62,571 nt of DNA, filler included, from 6 parts of 6 records of this genome joined end to end with filler, not necessarily neighbours in it, one strand, 5' to 3'. Counted from the first letter of the whole stretch, positions 17,667 through 56,970 are shown. Numbers and translations: made by a program. Notes: generated by a model not told the origin, from the letters alone.

Positions 17667-17766
17667 NNNNNNNNNNNNNNNNNNNNNNNNNNNNNNNNNN
17701 NNNNNNNNNNTTAATTAATTAANNNNNNNNNNNNNNNNNNNNNNNNNNNNNNNNNNNNNNNNNNNN
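17667..17766. other. Artificial contig spacer (44 N + TTAATTAATTAA + 44 N)
   Basis: Linker with stops in all six frames. Identical spacers occur at 25220-25319, 33711-33810, 42836-42935 and 56871-56970. Confidence 0.99.
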
Positions 17767-25219: not shown

Positions 25220-25319
25220 NNNNNNNNNNNNNNNNNNNNNNNNNNNNNNNNNNNNNNNNNNNNTTAATTAATTAANNNNNNNNNNNNNNNNNNNNNNNNN
25301 NNNNNNNNNNNNNNNNNNN

Positions 25320-33709: not shown

Positions 33710-34328
33710 CNNNNNNNNNNNNNNNNNNNNNNNNNNNNNNNNNNNNNNNNNNNNTTAATTAATTAANNNNNNNNNNNNNNNNNNNNNNNNNNNNNNNNNN
33801 NNNNNNNNNNAATATACACATTAGTGTTAACACGCCCTAATTATCGACCTATTAAGTGTTAGGCATTTTGAGTTAAACAAGCCTGTTACATACGCGCCAC
33901 CTTCATGGAAGCGTAAAAGTTCTTTTTGCCGAAGTCTGGAATGAGAACCTATTAGTCAACTATGCCGCACCGGGCGTTTATGTTTGTGTCTGGAAAGAGG
34001 GGCGCAAACTTAGTCTATATTCTAAAATGAAATGATGATGTTTTGTCGCGTTAGTTAGAGCGTTTTCGTTTGTCGTTAATCCACCGGGGCTCTACTTCTT
34101 ACGAGTCTCTTCGCCAAATCGTTTTACTGTTTGAAATGTCTTGTTACAGCGTCAAACTGCTGTTGATGCCGAATATCCGCCTGCAGGCACAAACCGGCAG
34201 GCGGACTGACTTTTAACGTGAGTGTTTGGCGGTGATGCTTGGAGTGGCGCATTAGCCGGCAGAACTTTGCCATGGCAACGTTGAGCTGGGGAATAGCGGC
34301 AATCGGGCAACGGTTAGCTCGCTGCCTG

Positions 34329-39695: not shown

Positions 39696-42467
39696 TCAAG
39701 AGTAAACCACAACGCTATTGCTGCGTTCGGCCGCGAGCGTCAAAACACTTTCAGCTTCTTCAAGGAAGGCATCGAGAGACTCATGCCCGGCATATTCAAC
39801 CAGGCCAACACTGACTGTAACAGAAAATTGTTGATCGCCACGCTCCAAAATTGTGCTGGCGATTTTGTTGCGGATACGCTCGGCCCACAGTTCCGTGGTG
39901 CGCGAATCCGCGTCGATCATTCCAATGCCGATCGTGTCGTCATTCACACGTCCAATCAGGTCATAGGGGCGGATTTCCCGGCTGAGCATCTCAAGGACGT
40001 GATGCATGCAGCTTTCGGCGAATTCTGTGTTAATGCGCGCCGCAAAATTGCGATACTGATCCATGGAAAGCAGGCAAAGCGTCAGGTGCAGCTTTTGATC
40101 ACGGGCACGCACAAATTCTGCGTACAAGCGATTCTGGAAGGCTGTAAAGTTTGGAATACCTGTCGATTCGTCAATCAAAGCGTTGCTTTGCAGAACGCTG
40201 CTGACGTCTATCTGTTCCAGTACCGAACCGGCATACTCTGCCAGCAGTTCGATGATTTGAATGTCGCCACGCGTCAGTTCATTGCTGCGTGGAGTTTCGA
40301 TGAACACAGCACCAAAACAACTTTGCAGCGATTTAATCGGGACGAAGGTGTACGTTGAATTTTCAAGCGGCATTTCCTGCGGACTTACGCGAATGATATT
40401 CGGATCAATATCGCTGTGAGCGCGCGTTTCGCCGGCCAGAATTGCCTGACCGATCAGAGAATTGTGCAGGTCTACCGGTTCGCCGCTCAGGTTGGCGTGG
40501 CCGCTGTTGCGCATGCGCAATTCGGCAATCACCCAGGACTGGCGCTCCTGTTCATAAATACAGACACCCAGAATTGAGTGCGGAATCAGCGGAGCCAGTT
40601 TATCGACCAATGCAAAACAGATGTCGTGCCGCGTATTATTGGGATCGTTAATCAGACGGCGGAATCCATCAATCGATTCCATCGTCCGCGCCGATTGCAG
40701 CAGGTCGTATTTTTCGCCATAACCCTGGATCAGGCCACCGATCAGTTTGGTAAAGTGCCCCAGGAAGCCAACCGTTTGTGTGTCGTAGGCGTCTTCTTCA
40801 GTTGTATCAGCCGTCAGCACACCCCAGACCATGCCGTTGTAGTAAACCGGCACACCCACAAAGGAGCGTGTGCGCGCGGCGCTGGAGTAGTAGGGCAGCA
40901 GGTCCAGCTCCGCACTTGGATTGATTTCCGTCAGGATTTCCGGCGAGCCATTTGCCGCAATCTGGCTAACGACGTCACTGCCGAAGGCCAGTTTGCGTTT
41001 GTCGATCAGCGCATCTGGATCATCGGAGATTTTACTCTCGATCACAAATTCGGCTTTGTCGATGTTGACCCACAGGAACATCGTCGTGCGTGCGCTGATC
41101 ACTGAGCGAATGACCATCAGCACGCGTTTGATCAGGTAGTCAAATTCTTTGCGCGGTTCGTTGCGCAGGCTGTCGAGGTGTTCCTCAAAAATTTCTTCCA
41201 GCTGGATATTCAGCTTTTTGCGCTTGTGGCCGACGCTGAACTGTTCGTGCTGCTCTTCGCTATCTGCAGCTGCAGGCGCCTCAAGGGGTGCGTTTGCAGC
41301 AGGGCCGGTTTCCGGCGCTTGTGTTTGCGGGGCCGGGGCTACGGGTTTGGCCGGCGCCGGTTTAGCGGCTGCAGCTTGTTTGGCTGCCGTCTCTCTGGCT
41401 GCAGACTCTCTGGCTGCTGCTGATTCTCTAGCTGCTGCTGACTCTTTGGCTGCGGCGCGTTTTTCAGCGCGTTGTTTTTTGCGTTTGGCCTTGGAGCCTG
41501 TCTCTTTGGGCTGTTTGCCGGCCGCGTCCTGGGCTTGTTGTTGTTCGGCTTGCGGCTGGGGTTTAGCGGCTTGAGTCGCGGGGGCTTGGGGCTGGTTTTC
41601 CGCTGGTTTTTCGGATTTTGCTTCCGCAGGCTCCGCTTGAGCTTGTTTTGGCGCGGCAGGCGCGGCTTGAGCACTTTTAGCTGGATTCGTTGGAACTTCG
41701 GGCTGCGTTGCTTCAGGCTGTGGCACTTCTTTGGAGGCTATCTTTTTAGCTGAATCACCAGTGCTGCGTCGTGCTTTCGCAGGTTCTTGATGTGTCTGGG
41801 CCGGCGTTTTTGGCTGTGCCTGCTGTTGTGTTTTGGGCTCGGCCTGAGGTTCTGCTTGAGGTTCTGCTTGAGTTTTCTTGTTTGTCTCCGGGAGAGAAGC
41901 CTCAGCTTGAGTCCCACTGCCGATGATGCGAAAACCTTCGACGCTGTCATCGAGTTCGCTATCATCAGCGCGGTAGGCAGCGCCAATGATTGATCCGGAC
42001 GCTGCGTCAGGTTGCGGCGTCGGCGGAGCTACGGGCACGGTCTTGCGACTTGGGGCCGGCGGCGGCGTTGTGGAACCCGCCTGTTCAGCGGCCTGCTCGT
42101 GCTCAGGTGAGTTTTGGGCGGCACCGTCTTCATCTGGCGGACGGTTGGGAAATTCGTCGTTGCCAAAAGAAGCGGCATAGTCATCAAAGATGAGCCGTTT
42201 AGTGGTTGGGTCTTGCTTGACGGTCGTCTTAAACGCTGTGGTTTCGGAGACCGGTTTAGTGGCGTGCATTGATATGTCTTTCGTTCGCTGCGAGAAGAGC
42301 AGGAACAGAGCGACGACGCCCAGGATGGAAACGCAGGCGCCGATCAGCTTGATGGCTGCCTGGTCTAGAAACAGTGCAATACCCAGGCCCAGCAGGATCG
42401 CCAGAACAGCTGGAAAATCCGTGACCGGATTGATAAGGCGCCAAAACTCTTGACTGCGATTTGTCAT
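39696..42467 (-). CDS. Membrane-anchored protein: 2 TM, long P/Q/A/K-rich linker, two GAF domains, degenerate GGDEF
   Basis: N-terminal hydrophobic pair; GAF (RSFVGVPV...GVLTAD); C-terminal D..TGIPN...TVSVG fold with the signature read as RVNDDT. Confidence 0.8.
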   Translation of the reverse strand: MTNRSQEFWRLINPVTDFPAVLAILLGLGIALFLDQAAIKLIGACVSILGVVALFLLFSQRTKDISMHATKPVSETTAFKTTVKQDPTTKRLIFDDYAASFGNDEFPNRPPDEDGAAQNSPEHEQAAEQAGSTTPPPAPSRKTVPVAPPTPQPDAASGSIIGAAYRADDSELDDSVEGFRIIGSGTQAEASLPETNKKTQAEPQAEPQAEPKTQQQAQPKTPAQTHQEPAKARRSTGDSAKKIASKEVPQPEATQPEVPTNPAKSAQAAPAAPKQAQAEPAEAKSEKPAENQPQAPATQAAKPQPQAEQQQAQDAAGKQPKETGSKAKRKKQRAEKRAAAKESAAARESAAARESAARETAAKQAAAAKPAPAKPVAPAPQTQAPETGPAANAPLEAPAAADSEEQHEQFSVGHKRKKLNIQLEEIFEEHLDSLRNEPRKEFDYLIKRVLMVIRSVISARTTMFLWVNIDKAEFVIESKISDDPDALIDKRKLAFGSDVVSQIAANGSPEILTEINPSAELDLLPYYSSAARTRSFVGVPVYYNGMVWGVLTADTTEEDAYDTQTVGFLGHFTKLIGGLIQGYGEKYDLLQSARTMESIDGFRRLINDPNNTRHDICFALVDKLAPLIPHSILGVCIYEQERQSWVIAELRMRNSGHANLSGEPVDLHNSLIGQAILAGETRAHSDIDPNIIRVSPQEMPLENSTYTFVPIKSLQSCFGAVFIETPRSNELTRGDIQIIELLAEYAGSVLEQIDVSSVLQSNALIDESTGIPNFTAFQNRLYAEFVRARDQKLHLTLCLLSMDQYRNFAARINTEFAESCMHHVLEMLSREIRPYDLIGRVNDDTIGIGMIDADSRTTELWAERIRNKIASTILERGDQQFSVTVSVGLVEYAGHESLDAFLEEAESVLTLAAERSNSVVVYS

Positions 42468-42935
42468 GCGGGGAGACTTTGAGAAAACACACAGAACAGA
42501 AAATGTGTGTTCGCGGACAAATGCCGACAGACGTCAAACATTTGGGCGGTGCGGCGCTGAGGGCAGGCACAAAAACATCATTGTCAAACAGGTCGCGGTA
42601 CGATGTACCGTGAGTCCATTAAAGTTCGCAATTGATTGAAGATGTAAGCTGCTGCAAGGAAAACTTCGCCACCGCCGGGACATCCTGTGAACAGGAGTAT
42701 TCCGCGAATAAGCAATAAATTACACAAATCCGCGAACATGCTCAAATCGGGGATTTGAGGTGGTTGGCGGAGCTGTGGGATGGGGGATATTTTTTGAGCC
42801 TCAATAAAGTAATCCAGAGCAGCTGCTCTGGATTANNNNNNNNNNNNNNNNNNNNNNNNNNNNNNNNNNNNNNNNNNNNTTAATTAATTAANNNNNNNNN
42901 NNNNNNNNNNNNNNNNNNNNNNNNNNNNNNNNNNN

Positions 42936-42965
42936 CTTGAGTCAATGTGGTCGTTCGAAGCCTGA
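42936..42965 (+). CDS. Precursor peptide copy 1, C-terminal fragment (...LESMWSFEA*)
   Basis: CTT GAG TCA ATG TGG TCG TTC GAA GCC TGA gives the same peptide end as the gene at 43011-43184. Truncated by the contig start. Confidence 0.8.
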   Translation, partial: LESMWSFEA

Positions 42966-43010
42966 GAACATTAGTATTTGGTCACCATTTCTTGACGTAG
43001 AGACAGCACT

Positions 43011-43184
43011 ATGCAAAATTCAACCGTTCAGACACTGACATTAGATGAAATGACCCAATTGGATGCTGGTGCTACCGTGCACGGCGCCGATTTCTCGCAA
43101 CTATCAGACATCCACAGCTCCACCAGCAGTGATACAATCAATGGCAGCTACAGCCTAGAGTCAATGTGGTCCTTTGAAGCCTGA
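43011..43184 (+). CDS. Double-glycine-type leader precursor peptide (57 aa), copy 2
   Basis: MQNSTVQTLTLDEMTQLDAG-ATVHGADFSQLSDIHSSTSSDTINGSYSLESMWSFEA. The leader fits L(-12), E(-8), M(-7), L(-4), A-G(-2,-1). It lies directly upstream of a C39 ABC transporter and is absent from the ORF track (under 60 aa). Confidence 0.85.
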   Translation: MQNSTVQTLTLDEMTQLDAGATVHGADFSQLSDIHSSTSSDTINGSYSLESMWSFEA

Positions 43185-43217
43185 TTAACCATTCGGCCTT
43201 TAAGTTTTAAAATTTCT

Positions 43218-43257
43218 AAGTCCGCGAATAAAGTATTCGAGGGCTTTTTTTGTTTTT
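43218..43257 (+). terminator. Intrinsic terminator after the precursor genes
   Basis: Stem AAGTCCGCGAATA-aag-TATTCGAGGGCTT followed by TTTTTGTTTTT. Confidence 0.7.
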
Positions 43258-43360
43258 GGCATGATAATAGTGTATTTGTTCCGTGAATTAGTGATTGATG
43301 GTTTATTGTAGGCAAGCGGAGTCTCACGACTGCCTGGTTAGACTAATTCAGTGGAATCGA

Positions 43361-45547
43361 ATGTTTGAATCTTACAAAGTTGTTCAGCAACAAGCACAGC
43401 GGGATTGTGGTGCGGCATGCCTTGCGACCGTCGCCCTTTTCCACGGCTTAACCCTGCCATTTGCCCGCGTACGCGAATATGCAGCGACCGATACCGGTGG
43501 AACGACCGTTCTGGGGATGGTGACAGCTGCCGAGAAACTCGGCTTCAATGCAAAGGGTGTCAGAGCAACAGACGAATCCCTTGAGGAACTCCCACTTCCC
43601 TTCGTCGCCAGAATCGAAAAGCCTGGTGTGGGACCACACTACGTCGTCGTCTTTAAATTCAATAAGTCCAAGGTCGTAATTGGTGATCCAGCTGTTGGGC
43701 TTTGCAAGATTTCGCGGTCGGAGTTCCTTGACCAATGGACAAATATCGCCATTCTGTTGAGTCCAGGTGAGGAATTCGAGAGAGGTAATCTAACGCAGAG
43801 TAATATGCAGCGTTTTATGGACCTCGTCAAACCCCATAAAGTTCTGGCAATGGAAGCCTTCATTGCCGCTCTTTTTTACACAGTTCTGGGTGTTGCCACA
43901 GCTTTCTACGTTGGCCTCTTGCTGGATGAAGTCTTCCCGAATCACGATGAGCGGCTGCTGCATGTATTGTCGGCAGGTATGCTGCTCATCATTGTATTCC
44001 GCGCATTTTTCGGCTGGCTCAGGCGCCTATTACTATTGCTGATTGCACAAAAAATTGATGCGCGTCTCATTCTGGGCTATTACAAACACATACTGCGCCT
44101 GCCGCAATCGTTCTTCGATGCACGCCGCGTGGGCGAAATCATAGCACGTGTCAATGATGCTGTAAAAATTCGCAATGCCGTCGGGGGCACAACTCTTACG
44201 GTAGTGATTGACTCCCTGATGATTGTGTTTGCCTTTGCTGTTCTGGTTTTGTATTCCTGGAAACTGGCGCTGCTGGCAGCCGCGGTGTTCCCCGGTTTTG
44301 TAATGCTCTACCTGTTCCTGCGAAACCCGATTCGGACAACGCAGCGCAAGCTTATGGAAAGTTCTGCGGAGCTGCAGGCACAATACACTTCGAGTATCAA
44401 TGGCATTGACACAATCAAGGCCGTCTCTGCCGAACGATCATCCAACCTGAAGACCGAGCTGATATTCACACGTATCCTGCGTTTGATGGAACGTGCCACA
44501 AAACAAAGCATGGTCAATGGCACTGCCGCCGAAACCTTGAGCGGACTCGCAGTCCTGGGCTTGTTCTGGTACGGGGGCACACTCGTTTTTGCCGGAGAAG
44601 TCACACTAGGAGAGCTGGTAGCATCTTACACTCTGGTTGGGTATTTAACTGCACCGCTGGCGCGACTCATCAACGTTCATCAGTCAGTGCAGGATGCCCT
44701 TATCGCCGCCGATCGACTCTATGAAATCCTTGCAATTGAAACCGAAGATGCGCCGAATGAACTGAAGATCAGTCTTCAGCCAGATTCGGTTGAAGGCGCC
44801 ATCTCTCTTCACGATTGCAACTTTCGCTATGGTGCACGCGCCTGGACGCTTAAAAATGTCAACCTTGAGATTCCCGCCGGTAAGATAACGGCGATTGTTG
44901 GTGAATCCGGCTCCGGCAAGACTTCCCTGCTCAAGCTGCTGCAAAAACTCTACACAGTCAATGAAGGCAAGATTTTGCTGGATGGTGTTGACCTGCGCGA
45001 CATTGACATGGCGTCCCTGAGACGCATCATGGGAATTGTTCCCCAGTCAATCGAGCTGTTTCACGGCAGCGTTCTGGAAAATGTAGCCCTGGGAGACTTC
45101 AATCCGCGTGTGGAAAAAGTAATGGAAGTCTGTGCTCTGGTTGGTGCAGACTCATTCATAAACGACCTGCCTTCGCGTTACAATACTCTACTTGGTGAAC
45201 ACGGAGCAACTATTTCGGGCGGCCAGCGGCAGCGCCTGGCGATTGCCAGGGCCTTATATAATGATCCAAAATTACTCTTGCTGGATGAAGCGACCAGTAA
45301 TTTGGATAGTGAAGCCGAAGCCGCGATTCAAACATTACTTGGCCTGCTTAAGTATCAGCATATGACGATTGTTATGGTCGCACATCGCCTCTCAACAGTC
45401 ATGCGGGCGGACCAGATCGTTGTTCTGGAGGCCGGGCAAATCGTAGAGTCAGGCAATCACAAAGAACTAATTGAACGTCGCGGTAAGTACTTCCAGCTCT
45501 GGAATCGGCAATTACCGCTTGATGCTCTTAATGATCTATTTTCATAG
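43361..45547 (+). CDS. Peptidase-containing ABC transporter (PCAT; C39 peptidase + TMD + NBD, SunT/LanT-like)
   Basis: QQQAQRDCGAACL (catalytic Cys), PHYVVV (His), IGDP (Asp), Walker A GESGSGKT, ISGGQRQR, LLDEATS and AHRL. Start set at MFESYKVV. Confidence 0.95.
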   Translation: MFESYKVVQQQAQRDCGAACLATVALFHGLTLPFARVREYAATDTGGTTVLGMVTAAEKLGFNAKGVRATDESLEELPLPFVARIEKPGVGPHYVVVFKFNKSKVVIGDPAVGLCKISRSEFLDQWTNIAILLSPGEEFERGNLTQSNMQRFMDLVKPHKVLAMEAFIAALFYTVLGVATAFYVGLLLDEVFPNHDERLLHVLSAGMLLIIVFRAFFGWLRRLLLLLIAQKIDARLILGYYKHILRLPQSFFDARRVGEIIARVNDAVKIRNAVGGTTLTVVIDSLMIVFAFAVLVLYSWKLALLAAAVFPGFVMLYLFLRNPIRTTQRKLMESSAELQAQYTSSINGIDTIKAVSAERSSNLKTELIFTRILRLMERATKQSMVNGTAAETLSGLAVLGLFWYGGTLVFAGEVTLGELVASYTLVGYLTAPLARLINVHQSVQDALIAADRLYEILAIETEDAPNELKISLQPDSVEGAISLHDCNFRYGARAWTLKNVNLEIPAGKITAIVGESGSGKTSLLKLLQKLYTVNEGKILLDGVDLRDIDMASLRRIMGIVPQSIELFHGSVLENVALGDFNPRVEKVMEVCALVGADSFINDLPSRYNTLLGEHGATISGGQRQRLAIARALYNDPKLLLLDEATSNLDSEAEAAIQTLLGLLKYQHMTIVMVAHRLSTVMRADQIVVLEAGQIVESGNHKELIERRGKYFQLWNRQLPLDALNDLFS

Positions 45548-45702
45548 TCATTTCGTTACATCTTCAATTCCTTGGTTAAGGAAACTGTAACGAAGCTCTA
45601 TATTATGCTGAATTCTTGTAATTTCCGCATGCCTTATAAGCTGCGGTGGATACGCAATTCAGAGGGTAGAGAGCGTTTTTTCCGGAACGACATTATCTCT
45701 AT

Positions 45703-47001
45703 ATGAGCGGTAACGAAGACATAAAGGGTGGACCAATTTTAACGCGGCCAACGAAACAACGTGGCAGCGACAAGGAAGAGCGCGCTGTAGATGCTCTGCC
45801 TGACGAGGTTTTATTGCGGAAGGAATTGCTTCCCAACACCCTGGAAGTTTATCTGGCGCGCCCCAGCTATGCGCTGCGCATCGGCTTTTGGTTGCTGGCT
45901 TTGCTACTGACCGGCCTGGTAATATGGGCATCATTTGCTACAATTGATGTCATGGTGAAAGCGCGCGGCAGCATCCGCCCGGCAACGGACGTACAGCAAT
46001 TTATAAGCCCTTTTGATGGAGAAGTTGATCAAATCTTCGTTAAAGAAAATTCAACTGTGGCAGCCGGTGATACATTGATGGTTTTTGACGTCAGTGAGTG
46101 GCAAGAGCAGTTGCAAATCAATGACGTTCAGCTCTCAATGATCGCCAGTGAAAAAACAGATCTCAGGGCTATGCTGGCGGCAACGCCTCTGAGTTTTAAC
46201 GGAGATGCATATCAAAGTCTCCTTCCCTCACCACCGGCACTGGTTATCCCCAAGTACATTTCGCGCTACAATGCTTTTACCCGGGACGTACAACTCTTGA
46301 TCCAGCAGTACGAAGTCTACCGCAAACGCGCAGACCGGGCAGATGAGTTATTTGCCAAAAGTGTCATAAGTGTTGAAGAACATGAGGCAAGCCTGGGAAC
46401 CGCAAGACTCCAGGAATTGCAGATAACACAGTACTTAAACAATACATACAAAGACCTGCGCGAGACTGTTTTCAACCTGGAGCAGGAAGTTAATTCGCTA
46501 CAACGCTCAGCTGCAACACTTAACGAAAATATCAACAAAGCACATGTCATCTCCAATGTGAGTGGTACCGTGACGGCACTGCAGGTCGAAATGGCAGGAG
46601 TATTTAGGTCGCGCGGCAGTGAACTTTGCCTGATTACACCTGACGAGGACCTACATGCCGAGATTCAGATTCTGCCACGTGATATCGGTTTACTGCGCGA
46701 AGACCTTAAAGTTAACTTTCTCGTAGATGCATATAGCTTCTCCGAGTGGGGAATTGCCACCGGTTACATCAGCGTCATCCCAGCTGATGTCACCCAGGAC
46801 AACAAAAGCGCACAGCCCTATTTCAAAGTGCAGGCAGAATTTGACTCTGTGACCCTGGACTACAAACGCCCATCCAACCGCAAGCTGCAAGTGAGCCTGC
46901 GCAAAGGTCTCGATTTCCAGGCAAATATTATTGTGGGCGAGAAACGTTTGATTGAATCACTGATCGACAAAACAGTCGATTACTTCTACTTCACAGATTA
47001 A
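45703..47001 (+). CDS. HlyD family membrane-fusion / periplasmic adaptor protein
   Basis: Single N-terminal TM, lipoyl-like halves (SPFDGEV..IFVKEN..V.AGD and SNVSGTV), coiled coil, and DIG...V...DAY...G C-terminal beta domain. Confidence 0.92.
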   Translation: MSGNEDIKGGPILTRPTKQRGSDKEERAVDALPDEVLLRKELLPNTLEVYLARPSYALRIGFWLLALLLTGLVIWASFATIDVMVKARGSIRPATDVQQFISPFDGEVDQIFVKENSTVAAGDTLMVFDVSEWQEQLQINDVQLSMIASEKTDLRAMLAATPLSFNGDAYQSLLPSPPALVIPKYISRYNAFTRDVQLLIQQYEVYRKRADRADELFAKSVISVEEHEASLGTARLQELQITQYLNNTYKDLRETVFNLEQEVNSLQRSAATLNENINKAHVISNVSGTVTALQVEMAGVFRSRGSELCLITPDEDLHAEIQILPRDIGLLREDLKVNFLVDAYSFSEWGIATGYISVIPADVTQDNKSAQPYFKVQAEFDSVTLDYKRPSNRKLQVSLRKGLDFQANIIVGEKRLIESLIDKTVDYFYFTD

Positions 47002-47092
47002 CAGAGCAGCCTCTTCCCTACCGGGAAGCAAGTTCTGTTTAACGATTTGTGGTATTCAAAGAATTAACAGGCCAGACAGGCAAACCCAAATA

Positions 47093-49234
47093 TCATTCAG
47101 CTGAGTGGTGATCTGCATCTATAGTTTTCATGCCGGCTTCTTCAGACATCACCGGAAGCTCAATACCAAATGTAGCGCCTTCACCCAAGACACTCTTACA
47201 CCAGATTGTTCCGTTCATACGCTCGATGAAGTTTTTAGCGATTGCAAGCCCCAAACCGGAAGAACTTTCCCCACCAGTGGGACGCGCATTCAGGCGGACA
47301 AACTTTTGATACAGTTTGCCTTGTTCTTCTTCTGAAAGGCCTGGGCCCTCATCTTTAACCTGCACTGAAATCTTACCTTCGATTTCCTCTACCGCGACCC
47401 ACACTCTACGTGACTTTGGAGAATACTTAATTGCATTGGAGATGAGATTTTCAAGAATCTCGTGAATCCGTTCCTCGTCCCCAACTACAAAGGCCGCAGT
47501 TTCCATTGCCTGGTGAATCAATGTAATGTTTTTGCGACGGGCACGCTGTTTGTACACACCTACAATTTTATCGACGGCACGCGACATTGAAACGCGATTC
47601 ATTTCAAAGCGCATGACTCCGTCTTCGAGCATCCGAACGTCAAGTAGATTTGAAATCAAATCCATCATCGAATCCGAGCAGGTCTGGATATTATCCAGAT
47701 ACTGCAAGATATCGCGTTTATTCAAGATGTTTAAGTACTGGCGCATGGAGTCACTGGCCAGCACAACACCCGTCAGCGGGTTCTTGAGGTCATGAGCCAC
47801 AATGCTCATAATCTCATTTTTCTCTTTGTCTACGACCAGCAGCTTCTCGTTGGAGACTTTAAGGCGCAGGTTGGTTTTCTCCAGCTCATTGTTAACACGC
47901 ATAATCTGATGCTGACGCGCTTCCAACTCCAGCTTGGCTTCTTCCAGTGAGGTAGACTTCTCTTCAAGCGCTGCATTTGCTTGCTCAATCTGCTGCAGGG
48001 CATTTGCCAGCTCAACGTTTTTGAGGCGATAAATCTCTTTCTCACGCTCAATCCGTTCCATGTCATAGCGAAATTCAATCGCAGTGATCGCTTTGTGTTT
48101 TTCGATATTACGCACTTCATTGCGCGTTTCGGAAAACATCTGGTAATACTCAAGTCCCTTTTTGAAGTCACCATTGGCAACGTGTACCTTGTACAGCACT
48201 TCGTACAGGCGGAACATCAAATCTTTATTTTTTGACTGACGCACAACGTCCAAACCGGAAAGGCATGCGCTAATAGCGTCGTCAAATCGCTTTTCGCTTA
48301 AATACACTTTACCAAGGTTAACATATACGTCAGTTAAACCGTTGGCATCCGGCATTTCAGAGTAAATCTTCATCGCCTTGAGCAGATACTGGATACAGCG
48401 ATCGGTATCTTTCAACTGCAAGTAGACGTTGCCAAGGTGTTTAAGTGAAAACGCAATACCAGTCTTGTCACCGGCGGATGTACGAATTTCCAGTGAAAGT
48501 GTTAAGTATTTGAGCGCTTCGTCAGTCTTGCTCAGGAAGCTGTAAATCAGGCCCATGTTGCCATAGGTGTGGGCCAAACCGCGCAAGTTTTTGGTCTTCT
48601 TAAATATTGGGAACGAACGCAAAAGGTACTTAAGCGCCGTTTCAAAGTTGTCCATTGAGAAGTAAATCGTGCTTACATTATTTAGAGTCGTAGCCAGGGT
48701 GCTTTCATCGCCAATTTCTTCACAAAGGCGCAGAGCACGCAAGTGATATTCCAGTGCGGTGTCAAACTGCGTCAGTTCTTTGTAGACAGTCCCGATATTT
48801 GTCAAGGTCGAAGCAACAATGCGCTTGTCACCCACCTTTTCATAGTGCGCCAAAACTTTGTGCTGATACTTGAGCGCCACACTATACTTGTTTAAGCGGG
48901 AATAGACGGCACCAAGCAAGTTAAATACACTGACTTTACCTTTTTCAAAGTCGGCCTTCTCATAGTATTCCAGTGCTTTCTGCGCGTCTGCCAGCGCACT
49001 GGGAAATTCTCCCAAAAGGCACTTACTAACGCCCAGGTTCTTCAGGCTTTCCGCCATACCGATCAGGTAGGCTTGGGGGTTGGCCATCTTAAGCGCCATT
49101 TGCGCCAGATTGCGCGCCTGGATCGGATTGAAGTTGCGCAGTTCCCAGGACTTCTGATTCAGAATGTCCACACGCTCACGATCATCGCTCGCTTCGTTGA
49201 GTTGGCTCTGTATGTCTGGGATCTTATCGACCAT
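47093..49234 (-). CDS. Soluble TPR-repeat histidine kinase
   Basis: Tandem TPRs (NLG/NIG...Y...ALEY..AL), long coiled coil, AHDLKNP, NLISNAIKYS, DEGPG and SSGLGL. No signal peptide or TM segment is visible. Confidence 0.92.
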   Translation of the reverse strand: MVDKIPDIQSQLNEASDDRERVDILNQKSWELRNFNPIQARNLAQMALKMANPQAYLIGMAESLKNLGVSKCLLGEFPSALADAQKALEYYEKADFEKGKVSVFNLLGAVYSRLNKYSVALKYQHKVLAHYEKVGDKRIVASTLTNIGTVYKELTQFDTALEYHLRALRLCEEIGDESTLATTLNNVSTIYFSMDNFETALKYLLRSFPIFKKTKNLRGLAHTYGNMGLIYSFLSKTDEALKYLTLSLEIRTSAGDKTGIAFSLKHLGNVYLQLKDTDRCIQYLLKAMKIYSEMPDANGLTDVYVNLGKVYLSEKRFDDAISACLSGLDVVRQSKNKDLMFRLYEVLYKVHVANGDFKKGLEYYQMFSETRNEVRNIEKHKAITAIEFRYDMERIEREKEIYRLKNVELANALQQIEQANAALEEKSTSLEEAKLELEARQHQIMRVNNELEKTNLRLKVSNEKLLVVDKEKNEIMSIVAHDLKNPLTGVVLASDSMRQYLNILNKRDILQYLDNIQTCSDSMMDLISNLLDVRMLEDGVMRFEMNRVSMSRAVDKIVGVYKQRARRKNITLIHQAMETAAFVVGDEERIHEILENLISNAIKYSPKSRRVWVAVEEIEGKISVQVKDEGPGLSEEEQGKLYQKFVRLNARPTGGESSSGLGLAIAKNFIERMNGTIWCKSVLGEGATFGIELPVMSEEAGMKTIDADHHSAE

Positions 49235-56869: not shown

Positions 56870-56970
56870 TNNNNNNNNNNNNNNNNNNNNNNNNNNNNNN
56901 NNNNNNNNNNNNNNTTAATTAATTAANNNNNNNNNNNNNNNNNNNNNNNNNNNNNNNNNNNNNNNNNNNN

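Follow-up and report, generated by a model that had tools for sequence, protein, structure and literature searches.

In a bacterial DNA stretch of 62.5 kb (hereafter the window), we found a short locus in which tandem genes for a 57-residue peptide with a double-glycine-type leader are followed by genes for an ATP-binding cassette (ABC) transporter with a peptidase domain (PCAT) and an adaptor protein of the HlyD family. The locus is probably a small operon for a ribosomally made, leader-dependent secreted peptide that is likely to leave the cell unmodified. The sequence features that define a double-glycine leader paired with a PCAT were present, and each of the other families considered lacked support on features that were tested. 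We therefore regard the novelty as confined to the cargo, a new family of peptides served by a known kind of system, namely standard type I machinery of the PCAT/HlyD sort. Release of double-glycine-leader peptides through PCATs is the main bacterial route for unmodified bacteriocins and peptide pheromones; to our knowledge, very few PCAT cargoes have been characterised in diderm bacteria outside Enterobacterales.

The window consists of six contigs joined by runs of 44 N that flank a 12-base linker with stop codons in all frames, and genes on opposite sides of a join are therefore no neighbours. The cassette lies at the 5' start of the fifth contig (42936-56870). Its own upstream flank is absent, and the upstream gene content was taken from orthologous loci. 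Loci L001, L002 and L003 surround the closest PCAT orthologues, found in genomes G001-G003, while L038 is a contig end of genome G403 and L019 comes from genome G568. The window organism belongs to the FCB (Fibrobacteres-Chlorobi-Bacteroidetes) group, and its nearest named relative is a Candidatus Kapaibacterium metagenome-assembled genome (MAG) of the phylum Bacteroidota.

Precursor genes, leader and predicted core

Counted back from Gly20, positions -12, -8, -7 and -4 of the precursor are occupied by Leu, Glu, Met and Leu, and an Ala-Gly pair fills -2/-1. Substrates of ComA and LahT are recognised at the same leader positions, according to the available text of PMC6363468. The marks by which double-glycine leaders are recognised, namely a length of about 15-30 residues, hydrophobic residues at -4, -7 and -12, an acidic residue at -8 and a pair of small residues, were all found, the pair being an Ala-Gly variant. 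A loose leader pattern fitted 1 of 301 ATG-started open reading frames (ORFs) of 30-120 amino acids (aa) in the window, and that one was the precursor. The register at -12, -8, -7 and -4 (Leu or Ile) together with Ala-Gly is kept in 5/5 family members. In a five-sequence alignment, the invariant leader columns were Leu9, Leu11, Asp12, Glu13, Met14, Asp18, Ala19 and Gly20, and the invariant core columns were Ser29, Tyr47 and Trp53-Ser54-Phe55. Neither Pfam nor NCBIfam holds a family that matches the precursor.

Comparison at the codon level was possible both within and between genomes. The contig edge cuts through a second copy just upstream. Its remaining nine-residue tail has the same peptide sequence as the complete copy, the codons differing at 3 synonymous and 0 non-synonymous sites, and the likeness between the two copies stops at the stop codon. 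The precursor is present in at least two tandem copies in the window organism. Similarly, the three copies in G003 have identical cores although 9 and 5 synonymous differences separate them, the non-synonymous count being 0. When the leader of the window was compared with that of L001, eight changes were synonymous and four non-synonymous, the latter falling off the recognition positions except for the Leu/Ile exchange at -4. This pattern of substitutions indicates that the ORF is a real gene under purifying selection.

The predicted core of the window peptide is hydrophilic and has 37 residues, a mass of ~3966 Da if unmodified and a net charge of about -5. Across the family, predicted cores measure 35-37 aa and 3.7-4.0 kDa, have a net charge of -4.6 to -6.6 and contain no Lys, Arg or Cys; no hydrophobic stretch was found in any of them. 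The middle of the core is hypervariable, being almost wholly replaced between species even where there is otherwise little difference between the peptide genes, while the Tyr and the C-terminal Trp-Ser-Phe tail stay fixed. A feature search against a protein atlas gave unnamed clusters as the best match (0.86), followed by ComC (0.82) and a type-A lantibiotic (0.81), all of them under the level at which such scores are meaningful.

Between the last peptide gene and the PCAT gene lies a hairpin followed by a U-run. A simple terminator scan of 43184-43361 flagged nothing, and the fold of the window copy taken alone is unremarkable (z -0.7). Its counterpart in L001 and L002 is a perfect hairpin with a U-run (z -5.1 and -4.3), and the window copy, homologous to both, shows one compensatory pair. 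On the other side of the array, a sigma-70-like promoter with a consensus -35 hexamer, a 17-nt spacer and an AT-rich -10 was observed 5' of the first peptide gene in all three closest loci (L001:5450-5700, L002:5453-5703, L003:4637-4887). About 100 nt above this promoter, behind a T-run, the same loci carry a palindromic hexamer repeated at ten-base spacing, which may be a candidate binding site for a regulator. A search for the hexamer repeat across the window, whose contig is cut before the corresponding region, did not find it. In L003, the GWxTD gene is separated from the first peptide gene by ~1.8 kb (L003:3097-4885) that hold no convincing ORF or Rfam match, and an Rfam search of 42936-47100, L001 and L003 returned no match.

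Export machinery and surrounding genes

The transporter matches NCBIfam TIGR01193, 'peptide cleavage/export ABC transporter', with 546.2 bits against a cut-off of 523.85 over residues 34-737 of a 750-aa frame, and Pfam Peptidase_C39 at E 9.6e-36. Six orthologues all keep Gln10, Cys16, His93 and Asp109, and the Cys motif aligns to that of PCAT1. As the orthologues have the 728-aa form, the ATG at 43361 is a more likely start than the TTG at 43295; counted from this ATG, the PCAT starts 177 nt 3' of the peptide stop. Models of related export systems were not reached: the HlyB type with its non-catalytic C39-like domain (TIGR01846) scored 509.5 bits against a cut-off of 725.55, the catalytic Cys being present here, and the NHLP/Nif11 models for exporter and adaptor, TIGR03796 and TIGR03794, scored 474 bits against 853.3 and 43 against 156.2. 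Among solved structures, PCAT1 of Clostridium thermocellum (PDB 4RY2, with cryo-EM entries added later) is the best homologue (residues 4-716, E 5.5e-163) and has the same Cys motif, His and Asp, although it comes from a monoderm host, works without an adaptor and handles unrelated cargo.

The adaptor has one predicted N-terminal membrane helix (residues 55-85), and its gene directly follows that of the PCAT in G001, G002, G003, G403, G571 and G568. G001-G003 have one PCAT match each at E<=1e-100, so the pump is apparently dedicated, and genes for TolC-family (OEP) channels are found elsewhere in the same three genomes.

From these elements we propose the following mechanism. At least two tandem precursor genes would be transcribed from a promoter 5' of the array, in the region conserved in relatives, and the hairpin after the last copy would stop some of the transcripts before they reach the exporter genes, leaving more precursor than pump. 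The C39 domain of the PCAT would bind the leader via Leu-12, Glu-8, Met-7 and Leu/Ile-4 and cut after Gly20, with Ala-Gly standing in place of the double-glycine pair. The core would then cross both membranes by way of the ABC dimer, the HlyD adaptor and a channel of the TolC family whose gene lies elsewhere. The cleavage site, export and the absence of modification are inferred, the export part of the mechanism having good support from homology (Table 1).

The genomic context was compared among the orthologous loci. In G001 and G002, the gene order is HslV, RimO, a secreted GWxTD protein, the peptide gene(s), PCAT and adaptor, followed by convergent TPR and PAS histidine kinases. G003 has the same order from RimO on, the stretch examined ending short of HslV, and downstream of the cassette G403 has the gene order of the window, Lgt and an S9 peptidase being part of it. 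Within ~6 kb on either side in orthologous loci, we found no maturase, no recognition element (RRE) of peptides that are made on ribosomes and modified post-translationally (RiPPs) and no immunity gene; domain searches of the same range for radical-SAM/SPASM, YcaO, LanM, ATP-grasp and RRE were negative. RimO was considered as a peptide-modifying radical-SAM enzyme and ruled out, since it scores 466.7 bits with the equivalog model for the ribosomal S12 methylthiotransferase (cut-off 356.95). Similarly, no conserved small ORF with a hydrophobic segment, as a candidate for immunity, was found across the window, L001, L002, L003 and L030 loci. With HslV, RimO and the GWxTD protein upstream and the kinases and other genes downstream, there is therefore no maturase, RRE or immunity candidate beside the cassette in the orthologous loci, which bear on the window organism indirectly.

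The two neighbouring kinases are both convergent and have no hydrophobic segment (maximum 19-residue hydropathy 1.10 and 1.27). Orthologues of the TPR kinase (82-83%, 52% and 41% identity) were found only in G001, G002, G003 and G403, always beside the adaptor gene. On the preceding contig, the minus strand encodes a 923-aa protein (39696-42467) in which an N-terminal membrane segment is combined with a ~350-residue low-complexity region rich in Pro, Ala, Gln and Glu, a pair of GAF domains and one GGDEF domain.

Table 1. Features of the cassette and joins of the window, in window coordinates.
Feature	Position	Strand	Basis
Upstream tandem copy of the precursor gene, 3' end only (nine codons and stop)	42936-42965	+	cut by contig edge
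Precursor peptide gene, 57 aa	43011-43184	+	ATG ORF; homologues at same position in L001, L002, L003
Predicted leader, residues 1-20	43011-43070	+	
Predicted mature core, residues 21-57	43071-43181	+	
Hairpin (43218-43246) with U-run, predicted intrinsic terminator, probably partial	43218-43257	+	homology to L001/L002 hairpins
PCAT, 728 aa: C39 peptidase, six-helix membrane domain, nucleotide-binding domain	43361-45547	+	TIGR01193; Pfam C39, ABC_membrane, ABC_tran
HlyD-family membrane-fusion (periplasmic adaptor) protein, 432 aa	45703-47001	+	HlyD_3 35.7 bits, above cut-off
Cytoplasmic TPR-coiled-coil histidine kinase, 713 aa, convergent	47093-49234	-	TPR, HisKA, HATPase_c domains
Contig joins	17667-17766, 25220-25319, 33711-33810, 42836-42935, 56871-56970		

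Relatives and breadth of the family

A scan of one genome per species detected close PCAT orthologues at 80-81% identity in two MAGs and at 71-72% in the Candidatus Kapaibacterium MAG. Homologous small ORFs lie directly 5' of the three closest orthologues (G001-G003), in one, one and three copies respectively. In G571, from a sister lineage with a 54% identical PCAT, the corresponding position is taken by a 48-codon ORF whose leader is homologous and ends in a true Gly-Gly, while its core is different; because this Gly-Gly aligns to Ala-Gly, the leader register and the predicted cut after Gly20 are fixed. The contig of G403 (PCAT 54%) breaks inside the peptide gene, leaving end residues with Ile-Trp-Ser ~100 nt before the PCAT. 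This contig end (L038:13600-13724) is an assembly break within a peptide gene 5' of the PCAT, like that of the window. Such breaks suggest that near-identical tandem copies regularly disrupt short-read assemblies at the cassette, and precursor copy numbers are therefore likely to be underestimated. A tree of 19 PCATs from the order places the window with G001 and G002; G003 joins this group next (support 99/97), followed by G571 and G403. A 53% identical PCAT in G568 is preceded by two unrelated Gly-Gly-leader peptides (L019:733-1276), one of them with a hydrophobic, bacteriocin-like core, so cargo has been swapped within the PCAT orthogroup.

In database searches, relatives of the peptide were extremely scarce. 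An exhaustive phmmer search of 1.84 billion representative proteins gave 2 matches at E<=0.001, one of which is true, namely the L002 peptide; the second (P0002), a 621-aa repetitive protein, was judged spurious. A profile search of a 5.8-billion-protein index returned four proteins, all of the same clade. Full-length matches were detected in 3/254 genomes of the order and in 1/401 genomes of a class sample (G003), where two marginal matches (E ~0.009-0.01) lay inside unrelated frames and were discarded. Three weak profile matches in G001 (E 0.19-0.25) were also rejected as tandem repeat DNA and not peptides; the G001 contigs C80 and C34 (L013 and L011) carry ~338-base tandem repeats with long open frames on both strands that produce false profile matches. 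A word-index search with the single peptide gave no match, and a search for longer or fused forms of the peptide found none, which is weak evidence. In metagenomes, the peptide profile produced 214 pattern matches, 0 of them confirmed, and 80 loci kept with the PCAT profile (best identity 46%) contained 0 family members, whether sought with tblastn or with an HMM among 2642 small ORFs. A literature search, with supplement lists such as PMC12219008 File S1 outside its scope, found no paper on the peptide family or on PCAT cargo in Kapaibacteria. Judging from these searches, the family is very narrow and confined to one Kapaibacterium-like clade, with no detectable relatives outside it.

The record behind L002, CAYULF010000007.1, is labelled 'uncultured Hyphomicrobiales'. 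Its RimO, GWxTD and HslV genes are 94-97% identical to those of L001, and in GTDB it shares an order with the Kapaibacterium MAG. The Hyphomicrobiales label looks wrong.

Much of this picture had been drawn by an earlier reading of the stretch made before any database search (the sequence-only reading). It had named the 57-aa ORF with its leader spacing, the second copy just upstream, the terminator after the ORF, a PCAT with intact Cys, His and Asp, a membrane-fusion protein and a host probably from the FCB group, all of which were recovered here. It had also made itself dependent on similar small ORFs beside PCAT orthologues; G001-G003 carry homologues, G571 has a homologous leader and G403 retains the tail. 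Its description of the export system as a candidate undescribed one is not supported for the standard machinery found.

Possible roles of the peptide

As for its role, we tentatively prefer a lineage-specific extracellular, diffusible signal over a microcin-like antagonist. We lean this way because the peptide comes without an immunity gene, is small and hydrophilic, and combines a variable middle with an invariant tail, and because the palindromic hexamer repeat is conserved 5' of the promoter in L001-L003. The sequence-only reading had also offered a peptide signal, which we keep as a candidate role. Streptococcal ComC/BlpC peptides with their ComAB/BlpAB exporters share the leader positions Leu-12, Glu-8 and hydrophobic -7/-4 and are likewise short, unmodified, lineage-variable peptides cut by a PCAT; ComA is a solved relative of the window PCAT (E 3e-122), the ComC atlas score given above being a weak lead only. 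In contrast, ComCDE/BlpCHR keep a membrane sensor kinase and a response regulator with the peptide gene, whereas the cassette has neither, works in a diderm envelope with an adaptor protein and encodes an acidic core. Competence-stimulating peptides are cationic.

Several observations weigh against an unmodified secreted peptide of this kind. Gly-Gly, Gly-Ala and Gly-Ser are the cleavage pairs described in the available text of the sources (PMC6363468 among them), and Ala-Gly is not one of them. The adaptor matches TIGR01843 at E 2.6e-39, yet under the curated cut-off. A signal role is made less likely by the lack of a membrane sensor kinase or response regulator beside the peptide gene, with no response regulator in the contig, and a toxin role by the lack of an immunity gene in the loci scanned and of a hydrophobic segment in the core. 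Finally, with the flank missing, a maturase could still lie 5' of the window cassette or elsewhere in the window genome.

A class II microcin-like bacteriocin, that is, an unmodified peptide exported by PCAT, adaptor and TolC that kills close relatives after receptor-mediated uptake, is possible but in our view doubtful. The locus follows the five-part logic of such systems minus immunity, with a double-glycine-type signal, a PCAT, a membrane-fusion protein and a presumed TolC in trans (PMC10233263 and PMC12219008, as far as their available text goes). Within the same limits, these sources describe a close parallel in microcin V (CvaC, CvaB, CvaA, TolC), which has an unmodified precursor with a double-glycine signal, a C39-ABC transporter with an adjoining HlyD adaptor and an anionic product. 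The outer-membrane channel of microcin V is encoded elsewhere, as may hold for the cassette, OEP genes being present in G001-G003. According to the available text of PMC10233263, microcins are for the most part neutral or anionic, and no immunity protein is said to accompany the double-glycine bacteriocins of Bacteroides; these bacteroidetocins, which share phylum and double-glycine motif with the cassette peptide, are likened to it by description and not by sequence. The 53% identical PCAT of G568, beside its two double-glycine-leader peptides with one hydrophobic core, and the fast divergence of the core between species, which fits an arms race, also speak for antagonism. Class IIa microcins, however, have a small membrane immunity gene (PMC10233263, available text), and the cassette loci scanned contain no conserved small membrane ORF beside the peptide genes. 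Their size of ~5-10 kDa, as given for class II microcins, exceeds that of the cassette core, which is hydrophilic and devoid of any hydrophobic stretch, and they occur in Enterobacterales rather than in a Bacteroidota host. They also use Gly-Gly or Gly-Ala where the cassette has Ala-Gly, and no known family resembles the peptide in sequence.

It is improbable that the peptide is a RiPP precursor whose Tyr and Trp-Ser-Phe tail are cross-linked, sulfated or prenylated before PCAT export by an enzyme encoded elsewhere. Conservation does centre on a small number of aromatic and hydroxyl residues close to the C-terminus, the remainder of the core being variable; RiPP clusters are served by many PCATs, NHLP-type relatives of the window PCAT score at E 7e-142, and the upstream sequence of the window is missing. 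Set against this, the PCAT stays under the cut-offs for NHLP exporters, the peptide has no Cys, and the domain searches within ~6 kb detected none of the RiPP-associated domains listed above. The sequence-only reading had proposed a new RiPP, which the lack of a maturase or RRE in the orthologous loci does not support. It was right that no modifying or immunity gene lies downstream, where two kinases, Lgt and an S9 peptidase are found instead. It placed any maturase beyond the contig edge; the contig does start at 42936, but the corresponding position in orthologous loci is taken by the GWxTD protein, RimO and HslV, with the GWxTD gene and the ribosomal S12 enzyme RimO upstream in G001, G002, G003 and G571 alike. 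RaxX of the Gram-negative Xanthomonas is a double-glycine-leader peptide exported by a PCAT and an adaptor (RaxA/RaxB); it is signal-like, has a functionally essential Tyr and requires the sulfotransferase RaxST encoded in the same operon. The cassette differs in that a sulfotransferase gene is absent from the window locus and the orthologous loci.

Very unlikely, too, is a quorum-sensing circuit in which the peptide is a pheromone that is re-imported and sensed by the neighbouring cytoplasmic TPR histidine kinase. The orthologues of this kinase are limited to the cassette genomes G001, G002, G003 and G403, where they are always convergent with the adaptor; the kinase is devoid of membrane segments, the pace of divergence in its TPR part equals that of the peptide, and the Ile/Met-Trp-Ser tail is retained in exactly the same lineages. 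However, the conserved block extends to the PAS kinase, Lgt and the S9 peptidase in the same order, and because it includes housekeeping genes, vertical inheritance explains the adjacency of kinase and cassette. Moreover, a homologous kinase was found within 4 kb at 0/80 more distant PCAT loci, paralogues of the TPR kinase are present in 72/254 genomes of the order, and the locus holds neither an importer nor a response regulator. The more specific scheme, in which the core or a Tyr/Trp-Ser-Phe fragment is bound after re-import by the TPR kinase as an RRNPP-like receptor fused to a two-component kinase in Bacteroidota quorum sensing, seems to us a long shot. Finally, it is barely credible that the precursor frame is open by chance and that the PCAT exports some other cargo: the peptide has almost no database relatives and no Pfam or NCBIfam family, but this reading is already contradicted by codon-level comparison, with paralogous cores separated by synonymous differences only and the leader kept despite the eight synonymous changes that separate the window from L001, as well as by orthologues at the same position in four other genomes and by the single leader-pattern fit among 301 ORFs.

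The practical value of these findings is modest, the family being very rare and the organisms uncultured. What the locus adds is a new, selectively constrained family of PCAT cargo from uncultured Bacteroidota, very acidic, without basic residues and with an aromatic C-terminal tail. To the best of our knowledge, peptide signalling systems are barely known in Bacteroidota. Should the peptide act as a signal, this phylum would gain a case of such signalling; should it act as a toxin, it would count as a hydrophilic microcin of unusually small size.

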